Source of the DNA: Clostridia bacterium
GTDB lineage: Bacteria > Bacillota > Clostridia > CAKSNL01 > HGM11501
Length of the DNA: 45,380 nt
Assembly: GCA_045545475.1 (NCBI GenBank)
Contig: JAZQAZ010000037.1
Location: 1-45,380, forward strand
Direction of reading: 5' to 3'
Positions within the stretch are counted from its first letter, which is position 1. Each line of letters opens with the position of its first letter. The notes under the pieces were generated by a model. That model saw only the letters and a program-made list of their open reading frames with translations, was not told where the DNA came from and made no database searches. Shown here piece after piece: positions 318 to 41,024 of the stretch. Made by a program: the position numbers and the translations under genes.

Positions 318-321
318 TTTT

Positions 322-9779: not shown

Positions 9780-9886
9780 GTTTTGTGCGGGGAAACATCG
9801 CTATACCATGCGGATATGCAAGTGATAAAAGCTATTAAGATAACTAATCATAAGCCATAGGTTAAGTAATTGTGTATCTCGAGACT

Positions 9887-10120
9887 TTATTCAAATAGCT
9901 TAAATAATTTAATCCATTTTTCGCTATACTCATTTGAAATATCTATTATTTTTTTATTCTTCATAGCCTGTTTGAACGCTTTTGCTAATCCTACCTTCCA
10001 GCCATCGGCTAATTGGACTGAATACTTTCTTGCAAATTCTTCTATTTGCGGAACAACCGACTTAGAAGAATCGTATTCATCTTCGAAAGTTGCATCTTCT
10101 ACATATACAATCAGCTTGGT
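9887..10120 (-). pseudogene. C-terminal remnant of a truncated gene
   Basis: Start-less minus frame ..VYVEDATFEDEYDSSKSVVPQIEEFARKYSVQLADGWKVGLAKAFKQAMKNKKIIDISNEYSEKWIKLFKLFE*. Confidence 0.55.
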
Positions 10121-10191
10121 AAGGTATATGAAGAGAAAAAAGACGCTATAGGCAATGATAATATAAAAATCGTATTAAACTATGCATAAAG

Positions 10192-10227
10192 AAACCTGTT
10201 ATCCTTATGGATAACAGGCTGTTTTTT
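10192..10227. terminator. Hairpin terminator
   Basis: cctgttatcc ttat ggataacagg followed by ctgtttttt. Confidence 0.7.
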
Positions 10228-10400
10228 ATCAGGAGATAATTGTGACAGATGAATGAGGCTCCTGGTTAATTTGTGACTATACGGATTAAATAAATACGAC
10301 TTGAAAATGACGGGGATTGCATGGGCAGATAAGCTCATTTTCAGGCCGTTCCCGGAAAGGTGGTTGACCTGTAATTTTATCCTCTTTTCCTCCGAAATTA

Positions 10401-10454
10401 CGTATTTACGTACAAGAGCAGGTGGAACAAGGGTTATCTGTGTAAAAGATACGT
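10401..10454 (+). repeat. ~55-bp conserved motif, copy 2
   Basis: cgtatttacgtacaagagcaggtggaacaagggttatctgtgtaaaagatacgt. Confidence 0.75.
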
Positions 10455-10489
10455 ATTTTGTGAGAGAAAATTGATTTTTGAACTCGAGA

Positions 10490-12543: not shown

Positions 12544-12544
12544 T

Positions 12545-13402
12545 TTATATTCCCTCCTTGAATGGCTTCTCGAGGTATTTGTGAAGCTCGCTTAATTCAT
12601 AGTTATCATATTTTGAAAAATAAACTAAAAATCTTAAACTGTATGGAATGAGTTCGAAATCTATAATGTCTATTCTGCTTCTCTTTTTTAATTCTTTTAA
12701 GTATAAATTATAGAAACTATCGAGAGGTAAATCGCACAACATACGCTTACATTCTCTGTAATAATTGACAGGAGTTACATTTGGCAATGGTTCTTTAATT
12801 TTCCTTATAATACTTTCGTATTCGGGTTTGTTGAGAATTTTGAACATTTCTTCTTTGGATAAAGAGCTTCTATACTCTTCAGGCTCTTTAACTCGCTTTA
12901 GTATATTTTTGTTAGATAATGCGTATATACCGATAGGGGAATTCTTGAATTTTAAAATCAGTTCTTCAGCTTGTGTTTCGCTAGTTACAACGCAGACATG
13001 ATCGAAGGCTTTGTAGTAATCATTTATTTGAGAGTCTAATCTTTCAAATGTATCCAACTCTGTTTTTATCTCATATACAACCGCTTTGCCATTTATCATT
13101 ATGAAATCTGCCTTTGACTTTGCGACAGGAACCTCGGTTAGTGCCGTTGTTGTTTTTAACCTATGTGCGGAGATTATTAATTTATTTAGGAGAGTGTTTT
13201 TATAGAAATATTCATTTCTGTATGCTGAATCTAAGCATTCGTATATTTCTGAAATGATTTGCTCGTTGTTTTTTTCAGCATCATATGAAATATTATATCG
13301 TTTTACTACGCTAGCTAAAACCGAACGGGGATTATTGTTAACAATAAGAGAGTTAAGGGTGTTGCGAGTAAAAACTCTAGTCAAAATTGTATTGTTATTC
13401 AT
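12545..13402 (-). CDS. sce7726-family protein (PD-(D/E)xK nuclease-like)
   Basis: YRNEYFYKN, E..VAKSKADFIMINGKAVVYEIKTELDTFERLDSQ..YYKAFD; AAGGGG RBS before the ATG at 13402. Confidence 0.85.
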   Translation of the reverse strand: MNNNTILTRVFTRNTLNSLIVNNNPRSVLASVVKRYNISYDAEKNNEQIISEIYECLDSAYRNEYFYKNTLLNKLIISAHRLKTTTALTEVPVAKSKADFIMINGKAVVYEIKTELDTFERLDSQINDYYKAFDHVCVVTSETQAEELILKFKNSPIGIYALSNKNILKRVKEPEEYRSSLSKEEMFKILNKPEYESIIRKIKEPLPNVTPVNYYRECKRMLCDLPLDSFYNLYLKELKKRSRIDIIDFELIPYSLRFLVYFSKYDNYELSELHKYLEKPFKEGI

Positions 13403-13445
13403 TTGATTATCCCCTTTCCATATATTCATATAACCAAGCATCTAC

Positions 13446-13474
13446 ATTATAACACTAAATTATACAGTTGACAA
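13446..13474 (-). promoter_or_regulatory. sigmaA-type promoter of the sce7726 operon
   Basis: TTGTCA-17 nt-TATAAT on the minus strand. Confidence 0.65.
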
Positions 13475-13665
13475 CCTCTAAATTAAAGATTTTGCTTATG
13501 TAGTTTGTATAAATTAAAATTGAATAGTATTAAGAATATAAGTTTGTTAGAACTGCAAATGGACGGTAACGGGATGATGTACTTTCATTTGCGATGCATG
13601 GCAAAAATAAGCACAGTTAAACATATGAAAAAATAGTATAAATTTATAGTCGAACTCACGGATGG

Positions 13666-17562: not shown

Positions 17563-17783
17563 AAAATGTGTAAAGAACTATTTGTGATATAAGCATTTTA
17601 AATGTTTATATATGTTTCCTTCCTGCGGAAAGTCTTGGGGATTTACCGCAGAATGCCTTACGCACGCAGAGGCGTTTTGTGTTAAAGACTAAAGACTGCC
17701 GCAGCCGGATGACTTTTCACCATCCGGCATCCCTCCGGGGGAAACCCCGGAGGAAACCAAAAAGCAAAGAAAGAGGGATTGTA

Positions 17784-20504
17784 ATGAAAAGAATTTTGTG
17801 TATTTTGCTTACGGTAGTACTGATGCTTTCCTTCTGCGTAATTTATGCAAATGAAGACATTGTACTGCTTGTTTCGGATGCGGACTACAACAAGGAGGTA
17901 ACCGTAGCAGACGGTGTGGCAAAAAACTTTGCCAGAGGAAAGTATCTTGGCTTCAAGGACGTGGATATGACAGGAATTTCCTCTGTTGATATGTATGCCG
18001 ATGCTAAGGTTGTGGGGTGGTCTAACGGAGCGGCAATGCGAGTGATGATTGACGATCCCGTAACAGGCGATCAGATTGGAACAATCGTGGTAAGCGAATC
18101 CGGCGAAAAATATTCAGCTTATATAGAAAGCGTAAGGGGAATTCACGATGTGTATTTCGTGGAAAGCTATTGGGACGGATTGCTTGATAACTTTTTAGTA
18201 TCAAAGTTCGTGCTTAAAAAGACGGCTTATGAAGATACTGCACTCATCGACTGGGTGTCTGACGACTACATAAAGGATTTCTATGCCGACACATGGGTTG
18301 CGACAGACGATTTTGGCCGTAAGGTGGCAGACTTTGAAGAGGTTGGCGCACCTAAGGAAGACAGAGAAGTAATGATGATGTTCTGGAACTGGCTTTCGGG
18401 AAACGGAACAAGAAATGTGAAAATAATATCGGAGGTTATAAATAAGTATCCGGATGCCATGACAAATGCCAACAGCGAAGCCTGGAAGGGAATGGATGAG
18501 TTTTTCTGGGATGAGTCGGTATACGGCTTTTACTCAAGCTTCGATTATTGGGTATACCGTCAGCAGATAGAGCTTCTCGCAACGGCAGGGGTTGACGCTA
18601 TTATGCTTGACTACACCAATGGCGTAAATATATCAGAGGCTTGGAACATACTGGTAAGAGCGCTTCGGGATGCGAAGAAGGCAGGAATTGATGCTCCGAA
18701 GTTTGCACTTTATGCAGGAAATAAGACTGCAACGGTACAATACGGATTGCTGGCATCAGTGTACAATATAGCTTTTGTGGAGCACGATTTTACAGATGTG
18801 TGGTATCACTTGGACGGAAAGCCTCTTATAATGGGCCCATCAAGTGCAAAGAGTGCTATGGGTGCTGTAAATCCCGCCGATACCGAAGGTGTGGAATTTA
18901 TAAATAATATAACAGACTTTTTCACATGGCGTCCGGGCGGAAGACATACAGAGCCTTCCGACGATGAGCTTTGGGCATGGCTTGAGCCGTTCCCTCAGGG
19001 GGAAAGACGTGGCGGAATTAAAGAAGACGGAAGGCCTGAGATGGTGACAGTGGGAATGGCGGCAAATATTCCGTATTCTCAAGGTGAAAATTATTCATCC
19101 TATGCATTCAGCCTTCCTTATGTAATGGGTAAAAATTATTCATACGCTTTTGGTGAGGATTATTCTCCCGATGCGGACAGAAAAGCATTTTTCTTCCGTG
19201 AACAGGCAAGATTTGCTCTTGAAGCAGATCCCCATATTGTATATGTAACAGGCTGGAATGAGTACACCGCCGACAGACAGAGCGACTTTTACGGATATAA
19301 AAATGTATTTGTAGATACTTTTGACGATGCAAGAAGCCGTGATTTTGAGCCTGTTAAGGGAAGATTGGGGGACGATTATTACAATCTTTTGGTAGATTTC
19401 ATCCGTAAATATAAAGGCGTAAGAAAAGCACCGGTAGCGGGAAATCCTGTTACTGTAGATGTTTTTGGCGATATAAGCCAGTGGGACAGCGTTACACCTT
19501 CTTATTACAATTATGAAGGAATTGACAGAAACGGAACATCAGGCTACTTAAATCCCGAGACAGGCAAGGTTTGGACATATACTACAGAATCGTCAAACCG
19601 TGTGGTATTTTCGAAAGCATCACGTGACAGCGAAAATATTTATTTTATGGCAAAGGCCCCCGAAGGAAAGAGCATAGCATCAACAGCACTTTACATAAAT
19701 GTGGACAGAAATCCCGCAACGGGATGGGAAGGCTTCGACTATGTGGCAGGAAGAGGCGGCACTGCTTCAGTTGAAAGCCTTGCATCTGATAAAACCACAG
19801 CTTACATCGGAGATGCAACTGTTGTAAGAAACGGAAACGTAATGCAGATAAAAATTCCGAGAACATTGATAAATGAAACGGGAACAGCAGATTTTGAATT
19901 CAAGTGGGTTCACGGAGAATTCAGTTCCGTTACCGAGCTTTACAGCCTTTCAAATACGGCACCCGTGGGAAGATTCAGCTATCTTTATACAGAAATTGAG
20001 CAGAAGACTCTGACGGATGAAGAAAGAAAAGCACTCGGAGACGGAAGCATCCTTAAGGCAGGTAGTACAAGGATGATAACCTCCGGAGGAATTATGACGG
20101 TTTATGAAAAAGACACAGCCGTAACGCCCTTTGAAATGAATAATACACTCTACGTTCCCATGGAGACGTTTGAAGAGCTTCTTGTAAACGGAAAAGGCAA
20201 GGTAAGATATAACTACCTTTCAAATATTTTCTACTTCTACAATTATGAATTTACCGAGGACCTTAAGGGCCTTTCTGAAAACAACTGGTATTATACTGTT
20301 GTGGGTTCAAATGAGGCAAGATGCAACGGCGTTTTGACGAATATTTCAGCACCCGTCAGCGTAGTGGGAGATAAAATTTATGTTCCAATAAGCCTTTTTG
20401 CAGAATGTATGGGTAAAAAGGTTACAAATGTTGGCAACGGTGTTTACTTAATCGGGGATGCAGCGGTTGATGCATCGGCTTTAAGTCTTTCGTATATAGG
20501 TTAA
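17784..20504 (+). CDS. Secreted glycoside hydrolase (CBM6/35-like + GH99/GH71-like TIM barrel + copper-amine-oxidase-N-like stalk domain)
   Basis: Signal peptide MKRILCILLTVVLMLSFCVIYA; DTWVATDDFGR, FFWDESVYGFY, LATAGVDAIMLDYTN, VTGWNEY, SRDFEP; C-terminal TLYVPM/KIYVPI. ATG 17784 follows GAGGGA. Confidence 0.7.
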   Translation: MKRILCILLTVVLMLSFCVIYANEDIVLLVSDADYNKEVTVADGVAKNFARGKYLGFKDVDMTGISSVDMYADAKVVGWSNGAAMRVMIDDPVTGDQIGTIVVSESGEKYSAYIESVRGIHDVYFVESYWDGLLDNFLVSKFVLKKTAYEDTALIDWVSDDYIKDFYADTWVATDDFGRKVADFEEVGAPKEDREVMMMFWNWLSGNGTRNVKIISEVINKYPDAMTNANSEAWKGMDEFFWDESVYGFYSSFDYWVYRQQIELLATAGVDAIMLDYTNGVNISEAWNILVRALRDAKKAGIDAPKFALYAGNKTATVQYGLLASVYNIAFVEHDFTDVWYHLDGKPLIMGPSSAKSAMGAVNPADTEGVEFINNITDFFTWRPGGRHTEPSDDELWAWLEPFPQGERRGGIKEDGRPEMVTVGMAANIPYSQGENYSSYAFSLPYVMGKNYSYAFGEDYSPDADRKAFFFREQARFALEADPHIVYVTGWNEYTADRQSDFYGYKNVFVDTFDDARSRDFEPVKGRLGDDYYNLLVDFIRKYKGVRKAPVAGNPVTVDVFGDISQWDSVTPSYYNYEGIDRNGTSGYLNPETGKVWTYTTESSNRVVFSKASRDSENIYFMAKAPEGKSIASTALYINVDRNPATGWEGFDYVAGRGGTASVESLASDKTTAYIGDATVVRNGNVMQIKIPRTLINETGTADFEFKWVHGEFSSVTELYSLSNTAPVGRFSYLYTEIEQKTLTDEERKALGDGSILKAGSTRMITSGGIMTVYEKDTAVTPFEMNNTLYVPMETFEELLVNGKGKVRYNYLSNIFYFYNYEFTEDLKGLSENNWYYTVVGSNEARCNGVLTNISAPVSVVGDKIYVPISLFAECMGKKVTNVGNGVYLIGDAAVDASALSLSYIG

Positions 20505-20517
20505 GGAGGGATTTTGG

Positions 20518-21342
20518 TTGAACAAATTAGGTATTATATTTTCGCTTGAAAATATCTTAAACGAAAAAACCGAAGACCTTTTCAGCTTTGGTCTTGACAC
20601 GGTTCAGCTTAGCTGCTGGTGTCCTGAAAATCTTACATTGGAAAATGCGGAAAAGGTCAAGAAAATTCTTGCGAAGGGGAATCTTACAGCAACATCCGTA
20701 TGGGGCGGCTGGTCAGGCCCTGCTGTATGGAACTTTGTTTCGGGACCTAAGACGCTTGGTCTCGTTCCGAAGGAATATCGCTTCCACAGAATGCAGGAAT
20801 TAAGACGTGCCGTTGACTTTGCTGCGGCAGTCGGTGCTACGGATATGGCAACTCATATGGGTTTCATTCCGGAACAGCCCTGCTATGAAGAATACAGAGG
20901 CCTGGTTGAAGCGGTAAAATGGGTTGGTACTTATGCAAAGAGCAAGGGAATATGGTTCAATTTTGAAACAGGCCAGGAAACTCCCACAACCTTGATGAGA
21001 ACAATTGCTGATACAGGTCTTGATAACCTTGGCGTAAACCTGGATCCTGCAAACCTCATTATGTACGGCAGAGCAAACCCCGTTGATGCTGTAGGTATTT
21101 ACGGCGACAGGATAAGAGGTGTGCATCTTAAGGACGGCAACTATCCGACAGGCGACTTCTCAAAGCTCGGTTGCGAAACAAAGGTTGGAGAAGGATCGGT
21201 AAACTATCCCGCATTCATCAATAAGCTCGTTAAGGAACAGGGCTATAAAGGTGACCTTTATATCGAAAGAGAAATTTCCGGTGCACAGCAGATTGCGGAT
21301 ATCAAGGACACGATCGTATATATAAAAGAACTACTCAGATAA
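20518..21342 (+). CDS. Sugar phosphate isomerase/epimerase (xylose isomerase-like TIM barrel)
   Basis: THMGFIPE, FETGQE, NLDPANL, VHLKDG, YIERE; AAGGAGG + TTG start. Confidence 0.9.
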   Translation: MNKLGIIFSLENILNEKTEDLFSFGLDTVQLSCWCPENLTLENAEKVKKILAKGNLTATSVWGGWSGPAVWNFVSGPKTLGLVPKEYRFHRMQELRRAVDFAAAVGATDMATHMGFIPEQPCYEEYRGLVEAVKWVGTYAKSKGIWFNFETGQETPTTLMRTIADTGLDNLGVNLDPANLIMYGRANPVDAVGIYGDRIRGVHLKDGNYPTGDFSKLGCETKVGEGSVNYPAFINKLVKEQGYKGDLYIEREISGAQQIADIKDTIVYIKELLR

Positions 21343-21434
21343 AAAATAGTGTTAACGGTTGCACTAATCGGTTATGTCAGACCGGATAAAATATGCATTT
21401 TTCATCTGACTTAACAAAATGTGGAGGAATTGAT

Positions 21435-24400
21435 ATGAGTATTAAGAAAAATACAATAGCTTCGCTTTTTCTGGCAATGGCATTGTTTTTCAGCATTATA
21501 CCGCTATATGCAAGTGGTGACGTTTGTCAGAACGATGCGACGGGCAAGAAATATTCCGCAATAAAAGATGCAATGTATGAAGCAAACGGAAAAACCATAA
21601 CTCTCCTTTCGGACACTTATCTGCCCGCCGGAAACCTTGGAACAAACGGCTACACCTTGAAGGGAAACGGTCATAAGCTTATTTTGGAGGGAGATGTTAC
21701 ACTCCTTAGCGAAAAAGGAGCGGTTTTCCAGGATATCACAATTGACTTAAGCGGATTTCACTTCGCAGTAACCGAAAACTCGGGAGACAGTGTCATTACC
21801 CTCGGAAATGGAACTATCGTTGAAAACGGCTCGGGTACAAACGGCGGTGCGTTTTTGGTTAATGCAGGTGCGGAAGTAATAATGGAAGACGGAGCCGTTG
21901 TAAGAAATTCTGTTGCGGCAAAAGGCAGCGGCGGCGGTTTCTTCTTAAACGGCGGAACGCTTATAATGAAAGGCGGAACAATTGAAAACTGCAGCAGTAT
22001 AAACCGAGGCGGCGGTGTTCTTGTAAACGAAACGGGAACATTAAAGCTTTCAGGAAGTGCAAAAATTATAAACAATAAAAGTACAAGCGGTCAGAGAGGC
22101 CCGGTAAACAATGTGGAAGTAAGAGATGCCGACGGATTTATTCTTTCGGGAGCCTTTACAGGAAGTGCAGGTCTTCGATATGACGAAGGCGGCGAAGGCG
22201 TTCCCTTCGGTATTATTGAAGGAAATGTTTCGGGTGCCGATAAAATTTTATGGGATATTGATAATTCCTTAGTCGGATCTGTAAGCGGAACAAATCTTGT
22301 GATAGCAAAAGGCGGAAGTGCCAACAGCTCCGGCACAAGCACAAGTTCATCGGAAAATTCCGGAACAGCTTCCGGTAAAACAGAAATCGTTCCAGGCGGA
22401 GATGTATGTTATATAGGAAACGATTTGGGCTCGGGAATTAAATATTCCGACCTTAAAACCGCTTTATATGCGGCAAACGGAAAAACCGTTCATCTTCTTA
22501 AAAATACTTATCTTCCCGCAGGAAACATCGGAACAAACGGCTATGTGATAGACGGAACCAATATAGACGGCGGCGAAAACTTCAAACTTCTTGCAGAAGG
22601 CGATGTAACACTGCTTAACGATAAGGGAGCAATCTTTACCAACGTAACCGTTGACCTTAATTCTCACCACATTAACGTAAGTACCACAGGCTCGCCCTGT
22701 AAGGTGATTCTTAAAGAGGGTGCGGTGTTTGAAAACGGCTCCGGAACAAACGGCGGTGCATTTTTGGTTAATGCAGGAACTGAAGTAATTATGGAAGAAG
22801 GAGCCATTGTAAGAAACTCTGTTGCGGCGAAGGGAAGTGGCGGTGGCTTCTTCTTAAACGGCGGAACGCTTACCATGAACGGCGGAAGCATAGAAAACTG
22901 CAGCAGTATAAACCGAGGCGGCGGAATAATTGTAAATGAAACCGGTACGCTTATACTGACGGGCAATGCAAAGGTTGTAAACAATAAGAGCACCAGCGAA
23001 CAAAGAGGCCCGGTAAACAACATTGAAATAAGAGACGGCGACGGCCTTATATTAAAGGGTGCATTTACCGGAACTGCAGGCATAAGCTACGACGAAGGAA
23101 CCGTCGGAGTTGCAATCGGGATAGCCGAAGGCGGTGCAAGCGGAGCGGAAAAGCTTATCTTCGATAAGGATAATACGGTAAAGGGAAGCATAGCTGACGG
23201 AAAAATTGTACTTACAAAGGGCGACGGCACACCTACTCCCGTAGGAAACGGAAAGCCCCTTTGCTACATCGGTACAAATAAGGGTAAAACCTACACCAAT
23301 TTATCCGAGGCGATAAAAGCATCAAAGGGCGAAACAGTTTACCTTATGGGTGATATGAGCCTTAACACAGGCGGTTCAAGCTACAGTGCAATTATTGCAA
23401 ATATCGACGGTGGCGGCTATAAAATCAAGGCGGAAAGCGAAATCAAGCTTATCTACGGCTCCCACCTGAAGTTCACTAATGCAACCATTGACCTTAATAA
23501 CAAAAATCACTTTGTACTCCAGTATACAGGAAAGCTTACTTTGGGAAAGGGTACCATAGTTGAAAATGGTAAGGCGTCCAACGGCGGTGCGGTACTCATT
23601 TATCCCGAAGGCGAAATGTATATGGAAGAGGGAAGCTTAGTCAGAAACAACACCTGCGATGGCGGTGGCGGAGGTATCCGTGTTCACGGCGGACTTCTTG
23701 TTATGAAGGGCGGAACGGTTACCGGGAACACTTCAAACTCGGGAAGCGGTATCGGCGTAAGTGAAAACGGAAGACTGGTTCTTTCCGGAAATGCCAAAGT
23801 CGAAGGTAATATCAACAAGGCAGGTGTTGAAGAAAACATAAGACTCGACTCCAAGGATTACTTAATCTTAAATGGAGAATTTATAGGCTCAGCCGGTGTC
23901 ACAATGGCAACTGATGCTAAGGAAGGCAGTGCCTTCGGCTTAGCAAACGGTGCTGTTAAGGGAGCAAAGAAGCTTTACCTTGATTCTGACAAGAGTCTTT
24001 CAGGTTCCGTAAGCGGAAACGAGCTTGTTTTTGCTAAAACGGCATCTGCAAAGGATTCGGGAACGGGCGAAGTTGTATATAGCGAGCCTGACGGTATAGG
24101 CTATGTTGACAAAAAGGACTGGAAGGTGGAAATAAATTCAGGTAACCCCGTAAACTGGCCCCGTTTAATCGACGGTTCGCTTGTTACCTACTGGCATTCG
24201 GGATATACCGTTGAAAACAACGCCATTGTTGCAAAGGACGATCCGCCTTTCAATATTGATATAACTCTTCCTGAAGAAACCGTGATTTCTGGCTTTGGTT
24301 TTGCTAACCGCCCCGACGGCGGAGCAGGAAAAGTTGCTCACTTAAAGTTCTTCATTGAGGAAAACGGAGAATTCAAGGAAGCAGGAGATTATAAGGTAGG

Positions 24401-25415
24401 ACAGATAAACGGCTTAAGACGAGAATTTTTCACCTGTAACATAAAAACAAAAAAGGTAAGAGTTCAGATACTTGACGGAATGGGCGGTTACGGTTCGCTG
24501 GCAGAAATTGAGCTTATTTCGGAAAATAAAAATCTTAAAACAGCCAAAGATTACGAAGACTTCCTTAAAATAACAAAGGAAGACGGACTTTATAAAATTG
24601 ATAAGTCAAAGGCTTCAGCGTATTACGAAGGAGAAGTATGGGGAGGCCGTATAATACAGAACGTAATCGACGGTGAAGATACATGCTTCCAGAATCAGCC
24701 TAAGACAGGTGAACTTGAAATTTTAATAGACCTGGGGGAAAGCTATAATTTAGAGGCTATAAGTCATCAGCCGAGACTGGACGATTCTCCCGGCTACTGG
24801 TACAATTACACGATTTATGCGTCAAGCGACGGAGAAAATTATGAAGAAGTAAAGAAAACATTCCTTCGCGATTTCTCATACGACATTGTATTTGACCACT
24901 TTGATGAAACGGTAACGGCAAGATATTTCAAGTTTGCAATACACCGCGGCTACAACGGAATAATGAGCTGTACGGAAATTGATTTTTATGAGTCATATGA
25001 AGAACAGACAAGACGAATTGAAGAAAGCCGCGAAATTTACAAGCTTGTTATCGGGGATAAAAACATCACTCACAAAAACGGCACGGTAACTCTTGATACC
25101 GCACCTTACATAGAAAACGGCACTACATTTATTCCTTTAAGAGGACTCTTAGAGCTTATGGGTGCAGAAATAGCGTGGAGCGACAGAGAGCAGGGAATAA
25201 CGATTACAAAAGACGACATAAAAATTTATCTGCAGATAAGATACGAGACAGTTAAGGTAACCACACCCACCTACGGCGAGGTAAGGTATAATCTTTTGGC
25301 AGAGCCCAGAATAACTGATAACCGTACCTTCGTCCCGATAAGATTTATATCCGAACAGCTTGGATATAATGTATCCTGGGATGGCGAAACTAAAACGGTT
25401 ACCATAACCAATTAA
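21435..25415 (+). CDS. Secreted protein: 3 beta-helix modules + 2 F5/8-type C (CBM32-like) + copper-amine-oxidase-N-like stalk domain
   Basis: Signal peptide from ATG 21435 (GGAGG RBS); GGA/GGG repeats; LIDG..TYWHS; APYIENGTTFIPLR and RTFVPIRFISEQLGYNVSWD. Confidence 0.85.
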   Translation: MSIKKNTIASLFLAMALFFSIIPLYASGDVCQNDATGKKYSAIKDAMYEANGKTITLLSDTYLPAGNLGTNGYTLKGNGHKLILEGDVTLLSEKGAVFQDITIDLSGFHFAVTENSGDSVITLGNGTIVENGSGTNGGAFLVNAGAEVIMEDGAVVRNSVAAKGSGGGFFLNGGTLIMKGGTIENCSSINRGGGVLVNETGTLKLSGSAKIINNKSTSGQRGPVNNVEVRDADGFILSGAFTGSAGLRYDEGGEGVPFGIIEGNVSGADKILWDIDNSLVGSVSGTNLVIAKGGSANSSGTSTSSSENSGTASGKTEIVPGGDVCYIGNDLGSGIKYSDLKTALYAANGKTVHLLKNTYLPAGNIGTNGYVIDGTNIDGGENFKLLAEGDVTLLNDKGAIFTNVTVDLNSHHINVSTTGSPCKVILKEGAVFENGSGTNGGAFLVNAGTEVIMEEGAIVRNSVAAKGSGGGFFLNGGTLTMNGGSIENCSSINRGGGIIVNETGTLILTGNAKVVNNKSTSEQRGPVNNIEIRDGDGLILKGAFTGTAGISYDEGTVGVAIGIAEGGASGAEKLIFDKDNTVKGSIADGKIVLTKGDGTPTPVGNGKPLCYIGTNKGKTYTNLSEAIKASKGETVYLMGDMSLNTGGSSYSAIIANIDGGGYKIKAESEIKLIYGSHLKFTNATIDLNNKNHFVLQYTGKLTLGKGTIVENGKASNGGAVLIYPEGEMYMEEGSLVRNNTCDGGGGGIRVHGGLLVMKGGTVTGNTSNSGSGIGVSENGRLVLSGNAKVEGNINKAGVEENIRLDSKDYLILNGEFIGSAGVTMATDAKEGSAFGLANGAVKGAKKLYLDSDKSLSGSVSGNELVFAKTASAKDSGTGEVVYSEPDGIGYVDKKDWKVEINSGNPVNWPRLIDGSLVTYWHSGYTVENNAIVAKDDPPFNIDITLPEETVISGFGFANRPDGGAGKVAHLKFFIEENGEFKEAGDYKVGQINGLRREFFTCNIKTKKVRVQILDGMGGYGSLAEIELISENKNLKTAKDYEDFLKITKEDGLYKIDKSKASAYYEGEVWGGRIIQNVIDGEDTCFQNQPKTGELEILIDLGESYNLEAISHQPRLDDSPGYWYNYTIYASSDGENYEEVKKTFLRDFSYDIVFDHFDETVTARYFKFAIHRGYNGIMSCTEIDFYESYEEQTRRIEESREIYKLVIGDKNITHKNGTVTLDTAPYIENGTTFIPLRGLLELMGAEIAWSDREQGITITKDDIKIYLQIRYETVKVTTPTYGEVRYNLLAEPRITDNRTFVPIRFISEQLGYNVSWDGETKTVTITN

Positions 25416-25434: not shown

Positions 25435-28400
25435 ATGAAAAGAAAAATGAAATTTTTGGCTTTACTTGTCTGTGCAGCTATGATTTTTTTCGGCATAAGT
25501 GTATTTGCAACAGTAACAGATGCCGAAGATATTATTATTGAAGAGGAAATCATTGAAACAGAAGAGCTTCCTGAGATTGCGGAATTTTCGGAAGAAGCAG
25601 AGCTTTTCGCAGAAGGCGCTGTGTGCTATATAGGCGATGACACAGAAAATACATATACCTCTCTTAATACAGCTATTTATAATGCGAACGGCGAAACAAT
25701 ACATCTTTTAAGCGATGCTACATTAGAGGCGGCAACCAATCTCGGAACAAGTGGAGGATATGTAATTGACGGAACAGGCGAGAATGACGAAAACTATACA
25801 ATTACACTTTCCGGAGAGGTTGCTATAGCTAATGAACATTCAGGAACTCTTACTAATGTTAATGTGGATATGGCAGGCTACCGCTTTGATATAAAGGGTA
25901 CAACCGTGTTTACATTGGGAAGCGGCACAATTGTTGAAAACGGTGGCGGAAGCGACGGCGGTACAGCAATCGTAAGAAGCGGTGCTACATTAAACATCGA
26001 AGAAGGATGTATAATAAGAAACTCTACTGCATCTGCTAACGGCGGAGCGCTTCACGTAAGAGGAACTGTCAATATGAGTGGCGGAAGCATAGAAAACTGT
26101 AAGTCGGCAAACAGAGGCGGTGCAGTTGCTCTTTACGAAGATGGTGTAATGAAAATTTCCGGTAATGCAACAATTACGGGAAATATAAGCACAGCAAAGG
26201 GCGAAACAAACGTAGAAGTACGTGATGCAGATTCTTTAATCCTTGCAGATGATTTTACGGGAACTGTCGGCATAAGCTATGACTCGGGTGCCAAGGGAGT
26301 AGCATTTGCTATTGCCGATGTAGGTGCAACGGGTGCTGAAAATCTTATATATGATGAAACAGAAGCCTATGTCGGATACATAAAAGACGGTACAATTTAT
26401 TTCGTTGAAGACGGTATATGCTATATTGGCGAAGACAGACTTACGGGAACTTTTTATGAAACACTTAACGATGCTATTGCCGCTGTTGACAAAAGCGGAG
26501 TAGTTATTCATCTTGCAGGAAATGCAACCCTTCCCGGAGAAACTACCTCAACGAATCAGTACGGTTATACAATTGACGGAACAGCAACAGGTGAAAACTA
26601 TAAAATTACGCTTTCCGGACAGTACACAATCCAGAATGTTGCAGAATTTAAGTTTACCAATGTTACTTTAGACCTTAATCAGAACAATATCAATGTAAAG
26701 AGAACAGGAAGCAACTTGTGTAAAGTTGTATTGGGAGACGGTGCATCATGGATAAATGGTAATCGTGCATCCGGCTCTTACGGCGGTGCTGCTTATATGT
26801 ATGCAAATACAGAACTTATTATGGAAGAAGGAAGCTCTGTTAAAAACTGTACTGCATATAACGGTGGAGGCGCATTTTTCGTTGCTGACAATGCAAGCCT
26901 TACAATGGAAGGCGGAAGCATAACGGCATGCTCTGCTTACGGTCGTGGTGGCGGTGTGCTTGTAAGCACAAACGGTAAAATTTATATTTCAGGAAACGCC
27001 GAAATCACGGGAAACAACAGTACAGCGAATGGCGATAATCTTGAAATCCGTGATAATGATTCACTTGAACTTACCGGAGATTTTACAGGATCTATCGGTG
27101 TTACGGTAGATAACGGAGCAAAGGGAGCACCTTTTGCCCTTGCCGGAAATGATGTAACAGGTGCAGAAAACTTATATCTTGAGTCTGACAGCAGTATTAC
27201 GGGAACAAATCTTAATGGTGTACTTTTCTTCAAAGGAACAGAAGATTTCAGTTGTTATATTTCTGTCTCCTCTGTGCCCACTAAAGCTTATGAGAATGTT
27301 ATAGACGGAATCAAAGCTGCAGAAGGAAATACTGTACATCTTATTAAAAATGCAACTCTTCCTGCGGGAAATCTCGGCACATCAGGCTACGTTCTGGATG
27401 GAGCAGGAAAATACACAGTTGCTCTTTCGGGCGACGTTACAATTCTTAATGAAGCAGGAGCAGAATTTAAGAATATTACCGTTGACTTGATGCAGCATCA
27501 TTTTGCTGTAACAACCAATAACGGAAAAGGAAGCATACTTATATTCGGAGACGGAGCGGTTGTAATAAACGGTAAGGCAGCAAATGGTGGTGCAGCGATA
27601 ATAAATTCGGGTGCCACAGTAAACATTAAACCGGGAAGTGTAGTTAAAGACTGTACTTCAACCGGAAACGCCGGTGCATTCCATGTAAACGGCGGAACAT
27701 TTAATATGACCGGCGGAACGATTACAAACTGCACTACAGCTAACCGAGGTGGCGGTATCCTGGTTGTTGAAGGCGGAACACTCAATCTGTCAGGAAATGC
27801 CACTGTTATGGGAAACACCAGCTCTTATGGTGCGAGAGGTCCCGTAAACAACATTGAAATCCGTGATTTTGACTCCCTTAATATTGCAGGCGATTTTTCG
27901 GGCGAGGTTGGTATTTCCTACTATGATAACACTACCTTTACTGCGGCAGTGGATTCTGCTTTCGGTACTGCGGCTACAGGTGTTACAATTGAAAAAATAG
28001 AAAATATTAAGGCTGACAAGGCAGAACTTTATGCATATATTGACGGAAACAGTCTTAAGTGGACAAGTAAGCCTTCTGTTAGCGTTCAGGCAGACTCCGG
28101 TGTATACAGCGATAAAACCGGTGTAATACGTTTCCTTACCACCTTTGAAAGCGTATCTCCTGCGGCGGTTTCAAACTACGGAACATACGCTCTTGCAACG
28201 GATGAATTTGATATTGAAAGCGATGCATCAGTGCTCACTAAGTTCTGTAGCTTTGATGTAACACCCGGAAACGGAAAAGCTTATATAGTTGATATTGTGG
28301 AAATCCCTGAAGATAAAACAGAGACTCTTATTTCGGGAATAAGCTTTGTGAAGATAAAAGGGGTAGCGACACCTTGTTATATGCCCTATGAAAAATGCAT

Positions 28401-28464
28401 AAGCGTTGCAAGCTGTAACGGCACAATTAAAAATCTGGGCATTAAGCCTGTAAGCGGAAATTAA
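25435..28464 (+). CDS. Secreted protein: 3 beta-helix modules + C-terminal G-V-I-R-F domain
   Basis: Signal peptide MKRKMKFLALLVCAAMIFFGISVFA, acidic linker, three CYI-initiated modules, ~130-aa C-terminal domain. Confidence 0.85.
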   Translation: MKRKMKFLALLVCAAMIFFGISVFATVTDAEDIIIEEEIIETEELPEIAEFSEEAELFAEGAVCYIGDDTENTYTSLNTAIYNANGETIHLLSDATLEAATNLGTSGGYVIDGTGENDENYTITLSGEVAIANEHSGTLTNVNVDMAGYRFDIKGTTVFTLGSGTIVENGGGSDGGTAIVRSGATLNIEEGCIIRNSTASANGGALHVRGTVNMSGGSIENCKSANRGGAVALYEDGVMKISGNATITGNISTAKGETNVEVRDADSLILADDFTGTVGISYDSGAKGVAFAIADVGATGAENLIYDETEAYVGYIKDGTIYFVEDGICYIGEDRLTGTFYETLNDAIAAVDKSGVVIHLAGNATLPGETTSTNQYGYTIDGTATGENYKITLSGQYTIQNVAEFKFTNVTLDLNQNNINVKRTGSNLCKVVLGDGASWINGNRASGSYGGAAYMYANTELIMEEGSSVKNCTAYNGGGAFFVADNASLTMEGGSITACSAYGRGGGVLVSTNGKIYISGNAEITGNNSTANGDNLEIRDNDSLELTGDFTGSIGVTVDNGAKGAPFALAGNDVTGAENLYLESDSSITGTNLNGVLFFKGTEDFSCYISVSSVPTKAYENVIDGIKAAEGNTVHLIKNATLPAGNLGTSGYVLDGAGKYTVALSGDVTILNEAGAEFKNITVDLMQHHFAVTTNNGKGSILIFGDGAVVINGKAANGGAAIINSGATVNIKPGSVVKDCTSTGNAGAFHVNGGTFNMTGGTITNCTTANRGGGILVVEGGTLNLSGNATVMGNTSSYGARGPVNNIEIRDFDSLNIAGDFSGEVGISYYDNTTFTAAVDSAFGTAATGVTIEKIENIKADKAELYAYIDGNSLKWTSKPSVSVQADSGVYSDKTGVIRFLTTFESVSPAAVSNYGTYALATDEFDIESDASVLTKFCSFDVTPGNGKAYIVDIVEIPEDKTETLISGISFVKIKGVATPCYMPYEKCISVASCNGTIKNLGIKPVSGN
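25618..26276 (+). repeat. DNA-level duplication of first beta-helix module (other copy 28773-29431)
   Basis: Long identical runs such as ggtggcggaagcgacggcggtacagcaatcgtaagaagcgg and ggaaatataagcacagcaaagggcgaaacaaacgtagaagtacgtgatgc. Confidence 0.9.
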
Positions 28465-28478
28465 GGGAGGGCTTTGTG

Positions 28479-28637
28479 ATGAAAAAATTAAAGAAAAAAT
28501 ATGAAAGCCCTGCTTTAAGCATAACAGAGCTTGAAGTAGAGGATGTTATTCTTGTAAGCGGTCTTGATGCTCTTATTACAGCAGATGATGTCCTGGGTCA
28601 GGGAAAGATTCAGTGGATAGAAATTGACCTTAATTAA
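28479..28637 (+). CDS. 52-aa peptide with YxxPxL...EDVIxxSG leader-like motif
   Basis: GGGAGG RBS at 28465-28470; MKKLKKKYESPALSITELEVEDVILVSGLDALITADDVLGQGKIQWIEIDLN*; missed by ORF track. Confidence 0.85.
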   Translation: MKKLKKKYESPALSITELEVEDVILVSGLDALITADDVLGQGKIQWIEIDLN

Positions 28638-28649
28638 AAATGACTTAAA

Positions 28650-28672
28650 GGGCGGTTCAATTTGAACCGCCC
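28650..28672 (+). promoter_or_regulatory. Strong intra-operon stem-loop without U-tract
   Basis: gggcggttcaa t ttgaaccgccc directly after the peptide gene. Confidence 0.6.
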
Positions 28673-28694
28673 GTACGTGAAATGAGGGGATATT

Positions 28695-31600
28695 ATGAAA
28701 CTCAGAATTACGGCTTTTATACTGGCACTTTGTATGCTGGTGTCGGGAATAACCGTAGCAGCAACAGAGGAAGCCGTGTGCTATATAGGAGATGATACGG
28801 AAAATACCTATACATCTCTTAAAACGGCACTTTATGCAGCGGATGGCGAAGTGGTACATCTTCTTTGCGATACGACTCTTGAAGCGTCTGATAACTTTGG
28901 TACAACCGGAGGTTATATCATAGACGGAAGCGGTGAAGGGGGGAATAACTACACCATTACCCTCACAGGAAATGTGGCTATAGTTAATGAACCTTCGGGA
29001 ACTCTTACTAATGTAAATATTGATATGGCAGGCTACCGTTTTGATATAAAGGGTACAACCGAATTTACTTTCGGAAGCGGTACAGTAATTGAAAATGGTG
29101 GCGGAAGCGACGGCGGTACAGCAATCGTAAGAAGCGGCTCTACATTAAACATCGAAGAAGGATGCATTATAAGAAATTCTACTGCATCCGCAAACGGCGG
29201 TGCACTTCACGTAAGAGGAACTGTCAATATGAGTGGCGGAAGTATAGAGGACTGTAAGTCAGCAAACAGAGGTGGTGCAGTTGCTCTTTACGAAGATGGA
29301 ATTATGAAAATTTCCGGCAATGCGACAATTACAGGAAATATAAGCACAGCAAAGGGCGAAACAAACGTAGAAGTACGTGATGCGGATTCTTTAATCCTTG
29401 CGGACGATTTTACCGGAACTGTCGGCATAACCTTTGATAATGCAACTGAAGGCACGGCCTTCGGTATTGCAGAAGATGGGGCGACGGGTGCCGAAAACTT
29501 TATTTTCGATGAGGACGGCGAAATAACAGGTGCCGTTAAAAACGGAAATCTTGTTTTATATAGAAAATCCGATGCGGTATGCTATATAGGCGACGATGAG
29601 GAGTCTGGAACGGTTTACAACAGCCTTAAAGAGGCTATGACAGAAGCTGAGGGTGAGACAATACATCTTATAGCAGATACTGCATTTCCTTCCGGTAATA
29701 TTACAACCAAAGGCTTTGTGATTGACGGAAGCAATGGTGACGGAAATTACACAATTACATACGAAGGCGATGTAACGTTTCTTAATGAAGCGGGAGCAAT
29801 TTTTGAAAATGTAAACATAGACTTAAACGAAAAGCACAACAATGTTACCGTAAACGGAAGCGGAACAAAAAGCTCTGTAACACTTGGATATGGAGCAGAA
29901 CTTTATGGCGGATACGGCACTAACGGCGGTGCATTTCTTATAAATAAAAATGCTGAAGTAATAATGGAAAGCGGAGCAAAGGTTACCGGCTGCTATGCCA
30001 AAAACAACGGCGGTGCCTTCTTCATAAACGAAGGAACCCTTAAAATGGAAGGCGGAACTATAGAAGGCTGTAAGGCACAGGTCGGAAGCGGCGTTTTTGC
30101 CGGAGGAGTTGCTTTCTTTTATGTGTCGGGTGATGCAAATGTTTTGGGAAATGACTTAGCTGATGCATCAGGCAATGTGACAAAAGAGGATTCACATAAC
30201 GTGGAATTAAGATCAACTAATACCCTTAACCTTGCATCCGGCCTTACGGGAAGCATAAAGGTTTATTTTAGAAGTAACGAGCTTACCGTAAAAGAAGGTG
30301 CGGTTTTCGGAACGGCGAAGGAGAATGCAACGGGAGCCGAAAACATCGTTTCTGAAAACGACGAAACTCTTTCGGGCGTCATTTTAGGCGGAAAGCTGGC
30401 ATTTCAGAGTGCGGAATTCTGCTGTTATATTGAAGATGAAGACGGAAATATCATTTCCGCATCCCAGAGCCTCGGGACAGCCATAAAGGCGGCAAACGGA
30501 AACACAGTGCATCTTTTGAGCGATGCTGAACTATCACCCACAAATGACGGAATAAATATCCGTGGTGTGCAAAGTGCAGTGATCGACGGAAGCGACGGAA
30601 AAGGCGGCTTTTATACAATTACTCTTACAGACGACATCCGTTTTGTAAATCCGGGAACGGTTACATTCAAAAACGTAAAGCTTGAACTGGACGGACATCA
30701 TTTTGATACAACGGTATCCGACGGAAGCTGTGTTATCATATTTGACGAAAATACAGCTGTAACCGGAGGTAAGGCGGCAAACGGCGGTGCAGTTTTGGTT
30801 AATGCTGGCTGCGAGCTTATTATGAAAAAAGGTAGCGCAATCGAAAGCTGTGAAGCATCAGGCGGTGGCGGTGCAGTTTGCGTTAACGGCGGAACCTTAA
30901 CCATGATGGGCGGTAAAATAACCGGAAACAAAGCAAATAACGGCGGCGGTGTAAACGTTTCCGATACAGGTATGGTAAGGGTTTCGGGCGATGCAGTAAT
31001 TAACGGTAACACAAAAAGCGACGGAGAAACGGCTGATAATGTAAAGCTTTCGAGATATGACAGCTTTTATCTTGTCGGAGAGCTTTCGGGCAAAATAGGA
31101 ATAACTATAACAGAAGCGGGCCCCGGAATGCAGTTTGGTGTTGCGGAAGATGAAACAGACGGTGCGGATAACATCTTTATGGATTCCGATAAAACACAAC
31201 TTGGTAGTATAAAATCAGGGAAGCTTGTTTTCCCCATAACAGGTGAAGCATATATCGGCGAAAGTGCCGAGGAAGGTATGATTTACGGAACACTTACCGA
31301 TGCTATCAAGGCATCAAACGGGGAAGTGGTGCATCTTCTTTCTGATGCTTCTTTGCCGGGAGGAAATCTCATAACCGGAGAAGGCTATATAATTGACGGA
31401 AGCAAGGCCGACGGCGGAACATTTAAGATAACGCTTTCAGATAATGTGACGATTCTTAACGAAAAGAGTGCGGAACTTAGAAATGTGGAAGTTGATTTAA
31501 ATCAGAAGCATTTCCTGATTTCTGTAACAGGAAACAATAAGAGTAAGCTTATTTTAGGCAGCGGTACTGTTCTTAAAAACGGCTTTGGTGCTAACGGCGG

Positions 31601-34600
31601 TGCGGCAATTATTAATGCAGGCGGTGAAGTAGTTGTAGAAGAAGGCACCCTTATCACAGAATGCAGAGCATCAAGCGGTGGCGGTGCTTTTCACGTAAAC
31701 GGCGGAACGCTTACCCTTACGGGCGGTAAAATCACAGGTAACCACGCCGACAGTAACGGCGGTGGCGTTATCGTAGCTCAGACGGGAACAGTAAATTTAA
31801 GCGGAAATGCAGAAATTATGGGAAACACTAAAGGAAGCGACAATAAAATAAATAACTTAAGATTAAGTGACAATGATTCACTTAATCTCAATGCTGATTT
31901 TACAGGAAATGTTGGTATAACCCTTGATAATACCACTTCGGGCGATGCTTTCGGAAAAGGAGGTGCAGGAGTTTCCGGTGCGGAAAAGCTTTGGTCCGAT
32001 TTGGATTCTTCGCTTCATGGGTTTTTATCAGGCGACAGCCTTTTATGGATTACCGGAACTGTTGTAATTGATATAGCTACTGACGGCGGTGTTTACAAAA
32101 ACGAAGACGGAAGCATAAAAAGCGGTGTTTTAAGAATAATCACCGGCTTTGAAAAGGCGGAAAATACTGATATAACAGCCTACGGTACATATATTATTCC
32201 ATCAGACATTTTCGACCGTTATGAATACGATCTTTATAACGATACGGAAAATACCCTTATAGGCTACAGAAGCATTCTTACAAGCAAGGATAATATGTTC
32301 AAAGCACCCGGAGAAATAAGCTCCTTCGGCGTTGATATGGTAAATATCCCCGGCGATAAGATTGATGCGGAATTTATTCCCGTTACATTCTTTAAGTCCG
32401 GTGACAAGTATTATTTTGTAAAGCACGATGCACTCTCGGTTTCCGACATAAAGGAAGAAGGAGAAATAAAGGTTATCGGAAGCCTCACGGAGACGTTTAT
32501 GCTTCCCAAAATAAAATACCTTGCATCCGACAGCGTTTATATTGAAGATGGTGACCTTGCAAAAACACTTTTTGCAGAAAAGGTTTACTCATCGTCTTCT
32601 CTTTCGGAATACAAGTCGGGAGAGGAAATAACAACCCTTCAGGATCTTAAGAGCGAGCCTGAATTTGTCCCTGATGAAAAGTACGTGATTTACGAACTTT
32701 CTGAAATTACAAAGATTTCAGGCCTCCGTCTTATTGAAAGCGGGGGAGTAATCGCTGAAAATGCACTTATCTATGTAACGGATGATGGCGAAACCTGGAA
32801 AAAAGTCGGAAATCTCAAGGCGAGAGGATGCGGCACACTCACAACAGATTTTGGATATAATGTAAATGTAAAAGCTGTTGCGATTGAATTTCCGGAAGAC
32901 AGACTTGCAGATATTGCTTTAGCCGATATGCATATCCTAAAAGGGGAGCGAAGCTACAAGGATATATCTATTGAAAATATAGAAAACTTCAGATTTTACA
33001 GCAATACTGCGGGAGGCTTTACAGCGGTTGTCGACACACAGCAGGAATCTGCTAAAATCGAAAAGCTTTTCGACGGCGATTACAATACATACTGGCATTC
33101 GGGTTATGTATCGGTTGACGGAACCACAAAGCCTTTAATAGAGCTTCCCCATACAATAACCGTAACCTTTGAAGAGGAACGTGTGATTTCGGGAATGCGC
33201 TATATCCCGAGAAACGGCTCCAACAAAATATCGGCAGTATCCGTTTACGGAACAGTTAACGGGAAAAACTACTATCTTTTGGCGGAAAGTGAAAGATGGA
33301 GCTATGCATCAAGCGAAGACCAGGAACCGAGAATGCTTGACTTCGGCGAAAATTACAGCGTTAAAGAAGTAAAGATAGTAATAACGGCGGCAAGCAACAA
33401 TGTTCATTCCACAGGTGCGGAAATTGAATTCTTAAAGGGAAATATGGGTTATGAAACACATAATAACCTTTCGGAGGACGGACTTGTAAACCGCATAAAT
33501 GCAGAAATAACCGCAACTGACGGAGAAATATCATATGCATTTGACGGTGTGGAAAAATCTTTCTGGGAAGCAGAGGAAAATGCTTCCTTAACTGTGGAAT
33601 TTGAAAAAATGCATTCCCTTTCCGGAATAAAATACCTTTCAGGAAGCGGCAAATGTATTGAAGAAGCTGATATTTATATAAGCGAGGACGGAGAAAACTT
33701 TATAAACTTTGCAAAGGCAGCCTTTAACGATGAAAACGAATATCATTTTTATGCAAATATAAAGGTAAAAGCAATTAAAATAGATATCACGAAAAGTTCA
33801 TCGGACAAGATAAAGGTGTCTGAAATGCTTTTCCTTTCAGGGAACAGGGATTATACAGACATTCTTCTTTCAAATGAAATGGAAAGCCCTGCTTCGTGGG
33901 AGATTTCCGCAAGTGAATATGGGGATAATCCTGCTGTAAATCTCATAGACGGAGATATAAATTCCGAATGGAGAACATATTACAGCGATACAGAAGAGGA
34001 TAAAACTCCCACCGATATAATTATTGATTTCGGCGAAGATACGGAGTTTTCCGGAATAAATTATTATCCCAGACGCAGCGGAGGAAACGGATATTTTACA
34101 GCGGTTGATTTTTACATATCCGTGGAAGAAGATAAAAACGGAAATCCTGTTTGGGATTATATCGGAAGCGACAGCTACAGCTATGTATCAGGCAGAGAAG
34201 TAAAAACTACGGTATTTTCAAGAAATTACAAGGCCGGGAAATTGAGAATCTGCGTTAAAGAAGGAAAAAATCTTTATGCGGCGGGTGCGGAAATAAAGCT
34301 TCTTAAGGCTGATGCCTCAAAGGTCGTGAAAAGTGCCCGTCTTATTTCGGATAAGCTCTATTTTGATCCTGCAGAGCCCTATGAGGTTCTGGCCAACTTT
34401 GAATTCAACGAAAGCGGAAGAGTAGTGAGCATTAAATACAATGGAATGGTTATTCCGAAAAGCTTTTATTCCGTAACGGAAGAAGGTATTATTTTAAGTA
34501 CATATGTTTTTGACGATTTCGTTGATCTTGATGAAAATACGGCAGAATTTACTGTTGATTTCCTTCAGGGAGAAAATGCCCGAGTTGTTGTGGAAATAGG

Positions 34601-40219: not shown

Positions 40220-41024
40220 ATGAAAATGATATCGAATTACCATACACATACATCGTTTTGTGACGGCAAAAATACACCTGAAGAAATAGTTTTATATGCA
40301 ATTGAAAAAGGATTTTCGTCAATAGGATTTTCTGGACACGGATACACACCCTTTGATTTAAGATATTGTATGCAGGATGAAGAGGGATATATTGAAGAAG
40401 TATCAAGACTAAAAGATAAATATGGCGAAAAAATTGAGATTTATTGCGGTGTTGAAGAGGATGCTTTTTCGTATGTAAACAGAGAAAGCTTTGATTATAT
40501 TATAGGAAGCTCACACTATTTTCATATTAAGGACAAATACTATCCTATTGACTCAAACTATGATTATTTCAAGAAATGTCTGGAGGTTTTTCATTATGAT
40601 GCGGAAAAACTTGCAGAAACTTATTACAGAACATTTGTAAATTATATTGAAAAAAAAAACTGATATCGTTGGGCATTTTGATGTTATAACAAAATTTGAT
40701 GAAATTGATGAAATGCGTTTTTTAAACAACGTGCAATATTTAAGCCTTGCACAAGAATACATAAAAAGAGCTGCACAGGCTGATGTGATTTTTGAAGTGA
40801 ATACAGGCGCTATGTCAAGAGGAGTCAGAAAAACACCATATCTGGGAGAAAACTTGCTTCATATTCTGAAAAAGCAAAATGGCAAAGTGCTTCTTTCTTC
40901 GGATAGTCACAGTGTTGAGACGCTGAATTATTACTTTGATGAAATGGAATATATTTTGCGTGATGTCGGATTTGATTGTGTATATGAACTAAATAAAGGC
41001 AAGTTCAGAAAAAGATATATATAA
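40220..41024 (+). pseudogene. HisJ-family PHP phosphatase split by frameshift in A10 tract
   Basis: NYHTHTSFCDG, GFSGH, DYIIGSSH in the first frame; DIVGHFD, FEVNTG, SSDSH in the second; junction at A10 40650-40659. Confidence 0.85.

Follow-up and report, generated by a model that had tools for sequence, protein, structure and literature searches.

The window analysed here, a stretch of 45,380 nucleotides (nt) of a Clostridia bacterium (contig JAZQAZ010000037.1 of assembly GCA_045545475.1), contains two large genes, encoding the proteins P0001 (1014 aa) and P0002 (2668 aa), and between them a gene for a small peptide. A stretch shared by the two proteins represents a new, rare domain family known from a few lineages of gut Clostridia, where it is found on secreted surface proteins with several domains and on carbohydrate-active enzymes. 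The family has two forms. The commoner one, form A, constitutes the C-terminus of P0001, and its gene is coupled to the peptide gene; by analogy, the peptide looks like a precursor of the Linear Polyphosphorylated Peptide (LPP) family of Bacilli. It is plausible that the domain docks this peptide.

The preliminary description of this DNA had proposed that both proteins contain an unnamed domain with a G-x-[IL]-R-[FI] motif, and this was borne out. BLASTP aligned positions 28006-28461 (P0001) with 31995-32702 (P0002) at 46/159 identities (29%; E 4e-15), including the motifs quoted there. In HMMER searches of the bacterium's own genome, the two copies recovered each other (E 4.2e-8 and 4.3e-9); by contrast, tblastn of each copy against the window returned self-matches only at E<=10. 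As had also been noticed, the domain directly follows the last beta-helix module in both proteins, starting between ..SLKW and TSKP in P0001 and between ..SLLW and ITGT in P0002. R24, G41 and D78 are invariant over 23 copies, R24 being the arginine of the motif. The genome holds four copies; the other two form the C-termini of open reading frames (ORFs) on contigs C20 and C16. The domain was rightly called unnamed. Neither copy matched a Pfam family at E<=10, so there is no match to an fn3, Big or carbohydrate-binding module (CBM) profile. NCBIfam gave no meaningful match and the PDB sequence search none, a PDB profile search returned only L25 at E 1.3, and the ESM Atlas contained no usable lead (0.85 or less).

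The distribution of the domain was determined with a profile built from the four copies of this genome. Among 1.84 billion representatives, it matched 114 clusters at E<=1e-3 (38 at <=1e-10 and 8 at <=1e-30), some of the 114 proteins being fragments. The domain is terminal in 109 representatives, ending within 27 residues of the protein end, and internal in five, where it is followed by 326-967 residues. A crude hydropathy test found signal-peptide-like N-termini in 82 of the 95 domain proteins of at least 300 aa. The passenger domains vary and include F5/8 type C, BspA-type LRR (LRR_5), right-handed beta-helix (Beta_helix), SASA and CE2 esterases, GH5, VanY, LamG and Big_2. No Pfam family is common to the 114 proteins, and SLH, CW_binding, dockerin, LysM, LPXTG (Gram_pos_anchor) and Cu_amine_oxidN1 are absent from all of them. 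The earlier statement that the 1014-aa protein has no other anchor agrees with this: no recognised anchor domain was among the Pfam matches of P0001. P0002, by contrast, has three SLH repeats. The GTDB order consists of a single family of 14 genomes, ten of which carry the domain with one to eight matches each. In a class-wide sample it occurred in 15 of 399 genomes (51 matches). A related-loci search with a single domain copy found one locus.

AlphaFold2 confidently predicted six long strands and an ordered tail for the domain when supplied with an alignment of 42 sequences (predicted local distance difference test, pLDDT, 86.8; predicted TM-score, pTM, 0.81), superseding a model based on four sequences (pLDDT 66). 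Foldseek retrieved nothing at E<=1e-3 and only generic Ig-like rows. In an all-against-all structural search with VIA-align, FN3 domains ranked top: 2gee_A superposed with Z 8.7 and a root-mean-square deviation (rmsd) of 2.4 over 93 residues, the sensor domain of RsgI4 (7cg5_A) had Z 8.4, and many further FN3 domains lay at Z 7-8.7. A Z near 8 is the usual background of VIA-align for sandwiches, so that the match indicates the fold class only, and in the model the fold is a generic FN3/Ig-like beta-sandwich. The incomplete Ig-like fold considered in the preliminary description was not supported, because whole FN3 domains superpose on the model.

The loci fetched contain 47 distinct domain copies, of which 41 were terminal with downstream sequence, five internal and one at a contig end. 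The co-occurrence with YxxP peptides that had been suggested was measured with a peptide profile. A peptide match lay 3-79 nt after the domain frame in 36 of the 41 terminal copies, across seven families. The five exceptions comprise three form B copies (L012, L022 and L139), one copy whose peptide is 262 nt away (L071) and one with the peptide upstream (L080). None of the five internal copies had a peptide. A hand cross-tabulation of the class-wide sample found a peptide match just downstream of 42 of the 51 domain matches. In the bacterium's own genome, the terminal copies on C20 and C16 are each followed by a homologous peptide gene, and the peptide is present in 13 of the 14 genomes of the family.

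In a maximum-likelihood tree, seven form B copies including that of P0002 formed one group (support 87/94, not starred). They have an insertion of ~25 aa in common, and a peptide accompanies none of the seven. A peptide link of both flanking genes, as first envisaged, therefore holds for P0001 and fails for P0002. Since form B copies occur without the peptide and P0002 sits downstream of the gene pair of P0001, the peptide belongs with the upstream gene P0001 and the adjacency of P0002 is incidental. Furthermore, domain and peptide diverge together: the Mantel r is 0.71 with the core and 0.65 with the leader, which 0 of 2000 permutations reached. Shared descent would also give this pattern.

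Several features of the peptide point to an LPP-type precursor. K6, Y8, P11, D22 and S27 are invariant in 21 peptides, and the mean identity is 53% in the leader (N-terminal 27 residues) compared with 34% for the rest. The sequence YESPAL is predicted to be the [Y/W]xxP motif of the leader that binds the recognition element (RRE) of RiPPs (peptides made by the ribosome and modified afterwards); PMC10368454 describes YxxPxL as the RRE-binding motif of lasso leaders. If the leader is cleaved after I24, as the comparison with LppA suggests, Ser27 (28557-28559) would be position 3 of the core, the polyphosphorylation site in LppA. This serine lies three residues past a conserved D-[VI]-I, and the Tyr-to-Ser spacing is 19 versus 18 in the published LPP motif. 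The peptide family comprises 92 clusters, none of which contains a Pfam domain or has a database name. Of 401 Clostridia genomes sampled, 57 contain the first ~35 residues, in up to 15 copies per genome and with variable C-termini. The peptide profile aligned with the TfuA lasso leader MEKKKYTAPQLA at E 0.49, and in the ESM Atlas the peptide matched unnamed clusters (0.90), which offered no usable lead. Matches of the profile to MpAFP and 'Ika' repeat proteins were rejected as repeat-inflated, a short VT.I..D.I..S strand motif being repeated four times. The hairpin behind the peptide gene is not followed by a U tract and went uncalled in the terminator scan; a stop of transcription before P0002 is therefore not claimed. 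In one metatranscriptome run, short contigs covered positions 27900-28149 and 28686-28828, although contigs cannot show transcription limits.

Another YxxP peptide of the same genome is encoded at C47:10553-10681 (MKKVYEAPTAELEIITTKDII..IIEMDF); its gene is located downstream of one resembling lysyl-tRNA synthetase and has no domain gene as a neighbour. Peptides of this type (also L059, L049 and L050) are kept in several genomes of the family, two genomes without any domain among them.

LPP clusters of Bacillota have the composition lppA-K-B-S-D-N (Popov et al., Nat Commun 2026, PMC13381572). According to that paper, the precursors contain a conserved leader, YxxPxVLxHQxIxFETxxS, and an HprK-like kinase polyphosphorylates Ser3 of the core. 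The set further includes a discrete RRE, a SipW-like leader peptidase cutting after T-1, an MsbA-like pump and a nucleoside triphosphate (NTP) transferase. In Bacilli the clusters sit in capsule loci, and the authors call the role of LPP unknown.

Putative counterparts of these genes were found in the bacterium's genome. Contig C34 contains three adjacent genes for a weakly HprK-like protein of 234 aa, whose position corresponds to LppK, a PqqD-family protein and a soluble S24/S26 SipW-like peptidase. The PqqD protein (54.9 bits) is closest to lasso B1 chaperones (TbiB1, E 1.3e-6). The peptidase (C34:95805-96296), which adjoins this discrete PqqD protein, exceeded the Peptidase_S24 cut-off of 23.3 with 25.1 bits, matched sigpep_I_arch below the cut-off of that family (E 1.8e-8) and is closest to the archaeal-type/SipW signal peptidase. 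A likely MsbA-like exporter is encoded at C8:150897-152561 (E 6e-104) and an NTP_transf_5 protein at C44:42210-43361. Beside the trio, at C34:93964-95745, lie a membrane-protein ORF and sigma-factor-like ORFs, which by eye were taken for sporulation genes.

A homologue of the 234-aa protein was detected in 55 of the 57 peptide-positive genomes, compared with 151 of the 399 genomes sampled; in the other two peptide-positive genomes, the 'peptide' matches lie inside a 286-aa frame. In the GTDB family, every genome (13/13 and the genome studied here) possesses the pathway genes. Among other families, 13 loci, hand-picked where peptide and 234-aa matches lay close together, display the order large ORF, YxxP peptide, 234-aa homologue, followed by PqqD in seven and by the peptidase in nine. 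Four of them were scanned further, revealing an ABC exporter in L100 and L108 and NTP_transf_5 in L099 and L104. In genome G295, a gene with the domain shares one strand and one operon-like row with those for the peptide, the 234-aa homologue and the peptidase; a PqqD protein was not detected there. In L105 (G329:C95, 2081-2425, minus strand), two YxxP-type precursor genes are arranged in tandem upstream of the 234-aa kinase-like gene, which fits the one to three precursors reported per LPP cluster. A small Cu_amine_oxidN1 protein is encoded inside the LPP-type operon of L104 (1952-2392) and, as judged by sequence clustering, likewise in L110 (3557-4039).

By analogy with the LPP pathway of Paenibacillus, the Lys-rich YxxP leader would be bound by the PqqD-type recognition protein of the genome, the HprK-like kinase would polyphosphorylate precursor residue Ser27 (core position 3), the soluble signal-peptidase-like protease would remove the leader and the MsbA-like ABC pump would export the core. 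Exported by this route, the mature peptide would reach the compartment into which Sec also exports the domain. There, the modified core may bind the C-terminal domain of the protein encoded just upstream. The domain would be a peptide-docking module, standing where other surface proteins here carry SLH or Cu_amine_oxidN1 anchors. Form B, as in P0002, would have lost its peptide partner, and internal form B may serve as a spacer in SLH-anchored proteins.

Complex prediction with domain and peptide resulted in an ipSAE of 0.42 (0.42, 0.45 and 0.36 in the individual runs) compared with 0.00 for the best of three controls; the pLDDT of the partner was at least 44 and the contact agreement at least 52%. 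In the calibration, 116 of 157 solved complexes and 2 of 215 mismatched pairs attained this mark, but values up to 0.60 comprised only 18 of those solved complexes and both mismatches. Scores in this range are more often wrong than right unless the pairing is likely beforehand. We therefore hold the docking of the cognate modified peptide by the domain tentatively, with slightly less than even confidence.

A number of observations weigh against docking. The fold of the peptide in the predicted complex is uncertain, and the prediction was run on the unprocessed, unphosphorylated peptide. Form B keeps the invariant arginine and yet has no peptide. A fused domain-peptide protein was not found, as the peptide profile matched 0 of the 114 domain proteins. 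Of 16 large ORFs that precede YxxP peptides in other families, 12 have no detectable domain copy; the peptide is therefore coupled to large ORFs generally and not to this domain alone. Pfam searches with the C-terminal ~490 aa of these 16 ORFs yielded nothing in 14 and sub-threshold matches to SpaA and DUF4625 in the remaining two. Orphan peptides without an upstream domain exist (C47, L048-L050, L059, L064 and L065). With respect to the pathway, the 234-aa protein showed only weak matches to HprK_rel_A (E 0.0074) and PEPCK_ATP (E 0.051). In the bacterium's genome, the genes for exporter and NTP transferase are dispersed away from the trio, and in the GTDB family no YxxP ORF is located within 1.5 kb of it in 12 fetched loci (L087-L098). 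Moreover, no contig of the metatranscriptome run covered the peptide gene.

Only one longer protein contains the peptide: P0209, with 148 aa, is encoded on a contig of 846 nt and seems to be two genes read through as one by a wrong gene call.

The main rival of docking is co-expression without contact, in which the domain would be an ordinary structural or glycan-binding FN3-like module, and module and peptide would be parts of one envelope or biofilm programme with shared transcription. The generic fold is in line with this idea, as are the 12 of 16 loci in which YxxP peptides follow large ORFs without a detectable domain, the existence of orphan peptides, the weak binding prediction (ipSAE 0.42) and the capsule loci reported for Bacilli in PMC13381572. 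We nevertheless consider it unlikely on balance, because gaps of 3-79 nt, typical of translationally coupled partners, are kept across seven families, the peptide core co-diverges with the domain, the controls of the complex test scored 0.00 and the peptide-less form is one tree group instead of scattered losses.

Rather improbable in our view is that the domain, by binding a wall polymer or carbohydrate, is itself what anchors or targets the protein, with the peptide acting elsewhere, for example as a signal or antimicrobial. Such a function would leave unexplained that form A is always accompanied by the peptide gene and form B never, and neither in sequence nor, convincingly, in structure does the domain match a CBM or wall-binding family. 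It would account for the terminal position of the domain in proteins without any known anchor and would suit a neighbourhood rich in rhamnosidases and CBM32-like domains; one weak Foldseek row was the N-terminal domain of the glucan-binding beta-GRP (3aqx, E 5.7e-3).

The alternating hydrophobic stretches of the peptide and the weakly passed complex prediction could also reflect a donor-strand arrangement, in which the unprocessed peptide supplies a strand missing from an incomplete Ig fold. This is very doubtful given that the domain model superposes on whole FN3 domains (93 residues, rmsd 2.4), that Sec exports the domain whereas the peptide lacks a signal peptide, and that the N-terminal half of the peptide is of the leader type which, according to PMC13381572, is bound by RRE proteins and then cleaved. 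A lasso-peptide precursor, to which the YxxPxL leader motif and the PqqD B1-like protein of the genome would fit, is the least credible reading: the genome (95% complete) has no match to Transglut_core3 (B2, PF13471), the cluster ORFs scanned include no cyclase-like ORF (no genome-wide search for Asn-synthase homologues was made), and the predicted cores vary at position 1 and do not keep Gly1 with Asp/Glu at positions 7-9. A toxin-immunity pair was rejected because the conserved part is the C-terminal domain, the variable passengers include sugar-acting enzymes and internal copies occur in SLH-anchored proteins.

A bolder extension of docking, which we regard as improbable, is that domain and LPP peptide jointly constitute a new means of retaining proteins at the Gram-positive surface. 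Once exported, the polyphosphorylated peptide would act as the receptor, perhaps joined through phosphate to an envelope polymer by LppN chemistry, and the C-terminal FN3-like domain would be the matching dock, acting via its invariant arginine. Every surface enzyme would have a dock of its own, with the gene for its receptor peptide adjacent. If true, the LPP family would gain a biological function.

Positions of the features around the peptide gene in the window
Feature	Position	Strand	Description
P0001	25420..28464	+	1014 aa, secreted; signal peptide, three ~270-aa beta-helix modules, C-terminal domain
Domain copy in P0001	28060..28461	+	residues 881-1014, 134 aa, C-terminal, peptide-linked form A
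LPP-type precursor gene	28479..28637	+	52 aa; starts 14 nt after the P0001 stop; GGGAGGG ribosome-binding site
Predicted leader	28479..28550	+	residues 1-24 (inferred): Lys-rich start, YESPAL (28500-28517), then ..EDVI
Predicted core	28551..28634	+	residues 25-52 (inferred; LVSGLD...WIEIDLN)
Hairpin after the peptide gene	28650..28672	+	10-bp, GC-rich, -20.3 kcal/mol, z -3.45
P0002	28695..36701	+	2668-aa surface protein; signal peptide, four beta-helix modules, then internal domain copy, four F5/8 type C domains, Flg_new repeats, three SLH repeats
Domain copy in P0002	32046..~32483	+	residues 1118-~1263, internal, peptide-less form B, ~25-aa insertion (DRYEYDLYNDTENTLIGYRSIL..)

Translation of P0001 probably starts at the ATG at 25435, because the near-identical representative P0003 begins with MKRKMKF. 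The N-terminal ~270-aa beta-helix modules of P0001 and P0002 are paralogous. The first module is nearly identical between residues 65-304 of P0001 (25615-26330) and 25-264 of P0002 (28770-29485), whereas the later modules are about 40-50% identical, which suggests a recent gene conversion or duplication of the N-terminal module. Upstream of P0001, two large ORFs of 941 and 1340 aa (17679-25415) end in Cu_amine_oxidN1 domains, located at the same place as the new domain in P0001. Positions 1-13500 constitute a mobile-element-like block. It encodes two large serine recombinases (1702-3249 and 7986-9509), a primase-like protein of the DUF927/Cch-HTH kind (5401-7140), DUF1643 and, at 10490-11611 on the minus strand, a RES-domain protein; between 10 and 14 kb, the G+C content drops to 0.35. 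A PHP-domain ORF at 40220-40663 and the ORF that follows it (40647-41024) overlap in different frames and may be one gene split by a frameshift.

The LPP pathway of Bacilli is already known from PMC13381572, the main text of which does not contain the terms 'surface' and 'Clostridi', although its cluster-listing supplement might include Clostridia. New are the domain family, its two forms, the LPP-type precursors trailing large secreted-protein genes in Clostridia and the scattering of precursors away from their enzymes. Literature searches, together with a term search of the RRE-Finder paper, turned up no account of these points or of a coupling between peptide and surface protein. In gut Clostridia, genes for large secreted proteins are systematically accompanied by LPP-type precursor genes, and in several lineages the coupling is to one specific unnamed C-terminal domain. 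The LPP peptide thereby gains a first candidate partner, and the question of its role becomes testable as binding of the core to the domain and control of enzyme location. In addition, a domain family is defined on glycan-degrading and adhesin-like proteins of gut bacteria. RiPP precursors can lie genome-wide far from their enzymes, and genome mining based on clusters would miss such precursors.

Comparison with known systems places the domain structurally among FN3/Ig-like domains such as 2gee_A and 7cg5_A, with which it has the seven-strand sandwich in common (Z 8.7 and 8.4, rmsd 2.3-2.4, 88-93 residues aligned). It differs from them in the lack of sequence similarity (6-10% identity, no Pfam fn3 match), in an ordered C-terminal extension of 35 residues, in its nearly always protein-terminal position and in its coupling to a peptide gene. 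SLH, dockerin and Cu_amine_oxidN1-type modules occupy the same architectural place on varied secreted enzymes. They are unrelated to the new domain in sequence and fold, and the ligand proposed for the latter is a small modified peptide encoded next door. Paeninodin-type lasso clusters of firmicutes (C A K B1 B2 D; PMC5067487 and PMC10368454) resemble the system in the [Y/W]xxPxL motif, the B1 RRE, the HprK-like kinase (putative here), the NTP transferase and the ABC exporter. Here, however, no macrolactam cyclase appeared among the cluster ORFs scanned and no B2 cysteine protease in the genome, and a serine signal-peptidase-like enzyme stands in the place of the protease.

The closest likeness is to LPP. 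The Clostridia peptides have a Lys-rich YxxP leader and a serine three residues past the predicted cleavage site; they are accompanied by a putative, weakly HprK-like kinase, a discrete PqqD RRE, a soluble SipW-like signal peptidase, an MsbA-like exporter and an NTP transferase, and the gene order in the 13 Clostridia loci is A-K-B-S. The leader motif reads ..E[DE][VI]I-xxS here and ..FET-xxS in LPP, the tyrosine being one residue further from the serine in the Clostridia peptides. Unlike the LPP precursors of Bacilli, those of Clostridia as a rule follow a large secreted-protein gene, and in the GTDB family of this bacterium each genome has two to nine precursor genes, which lie dispersed behind genes with the domain and apart from the one trio.

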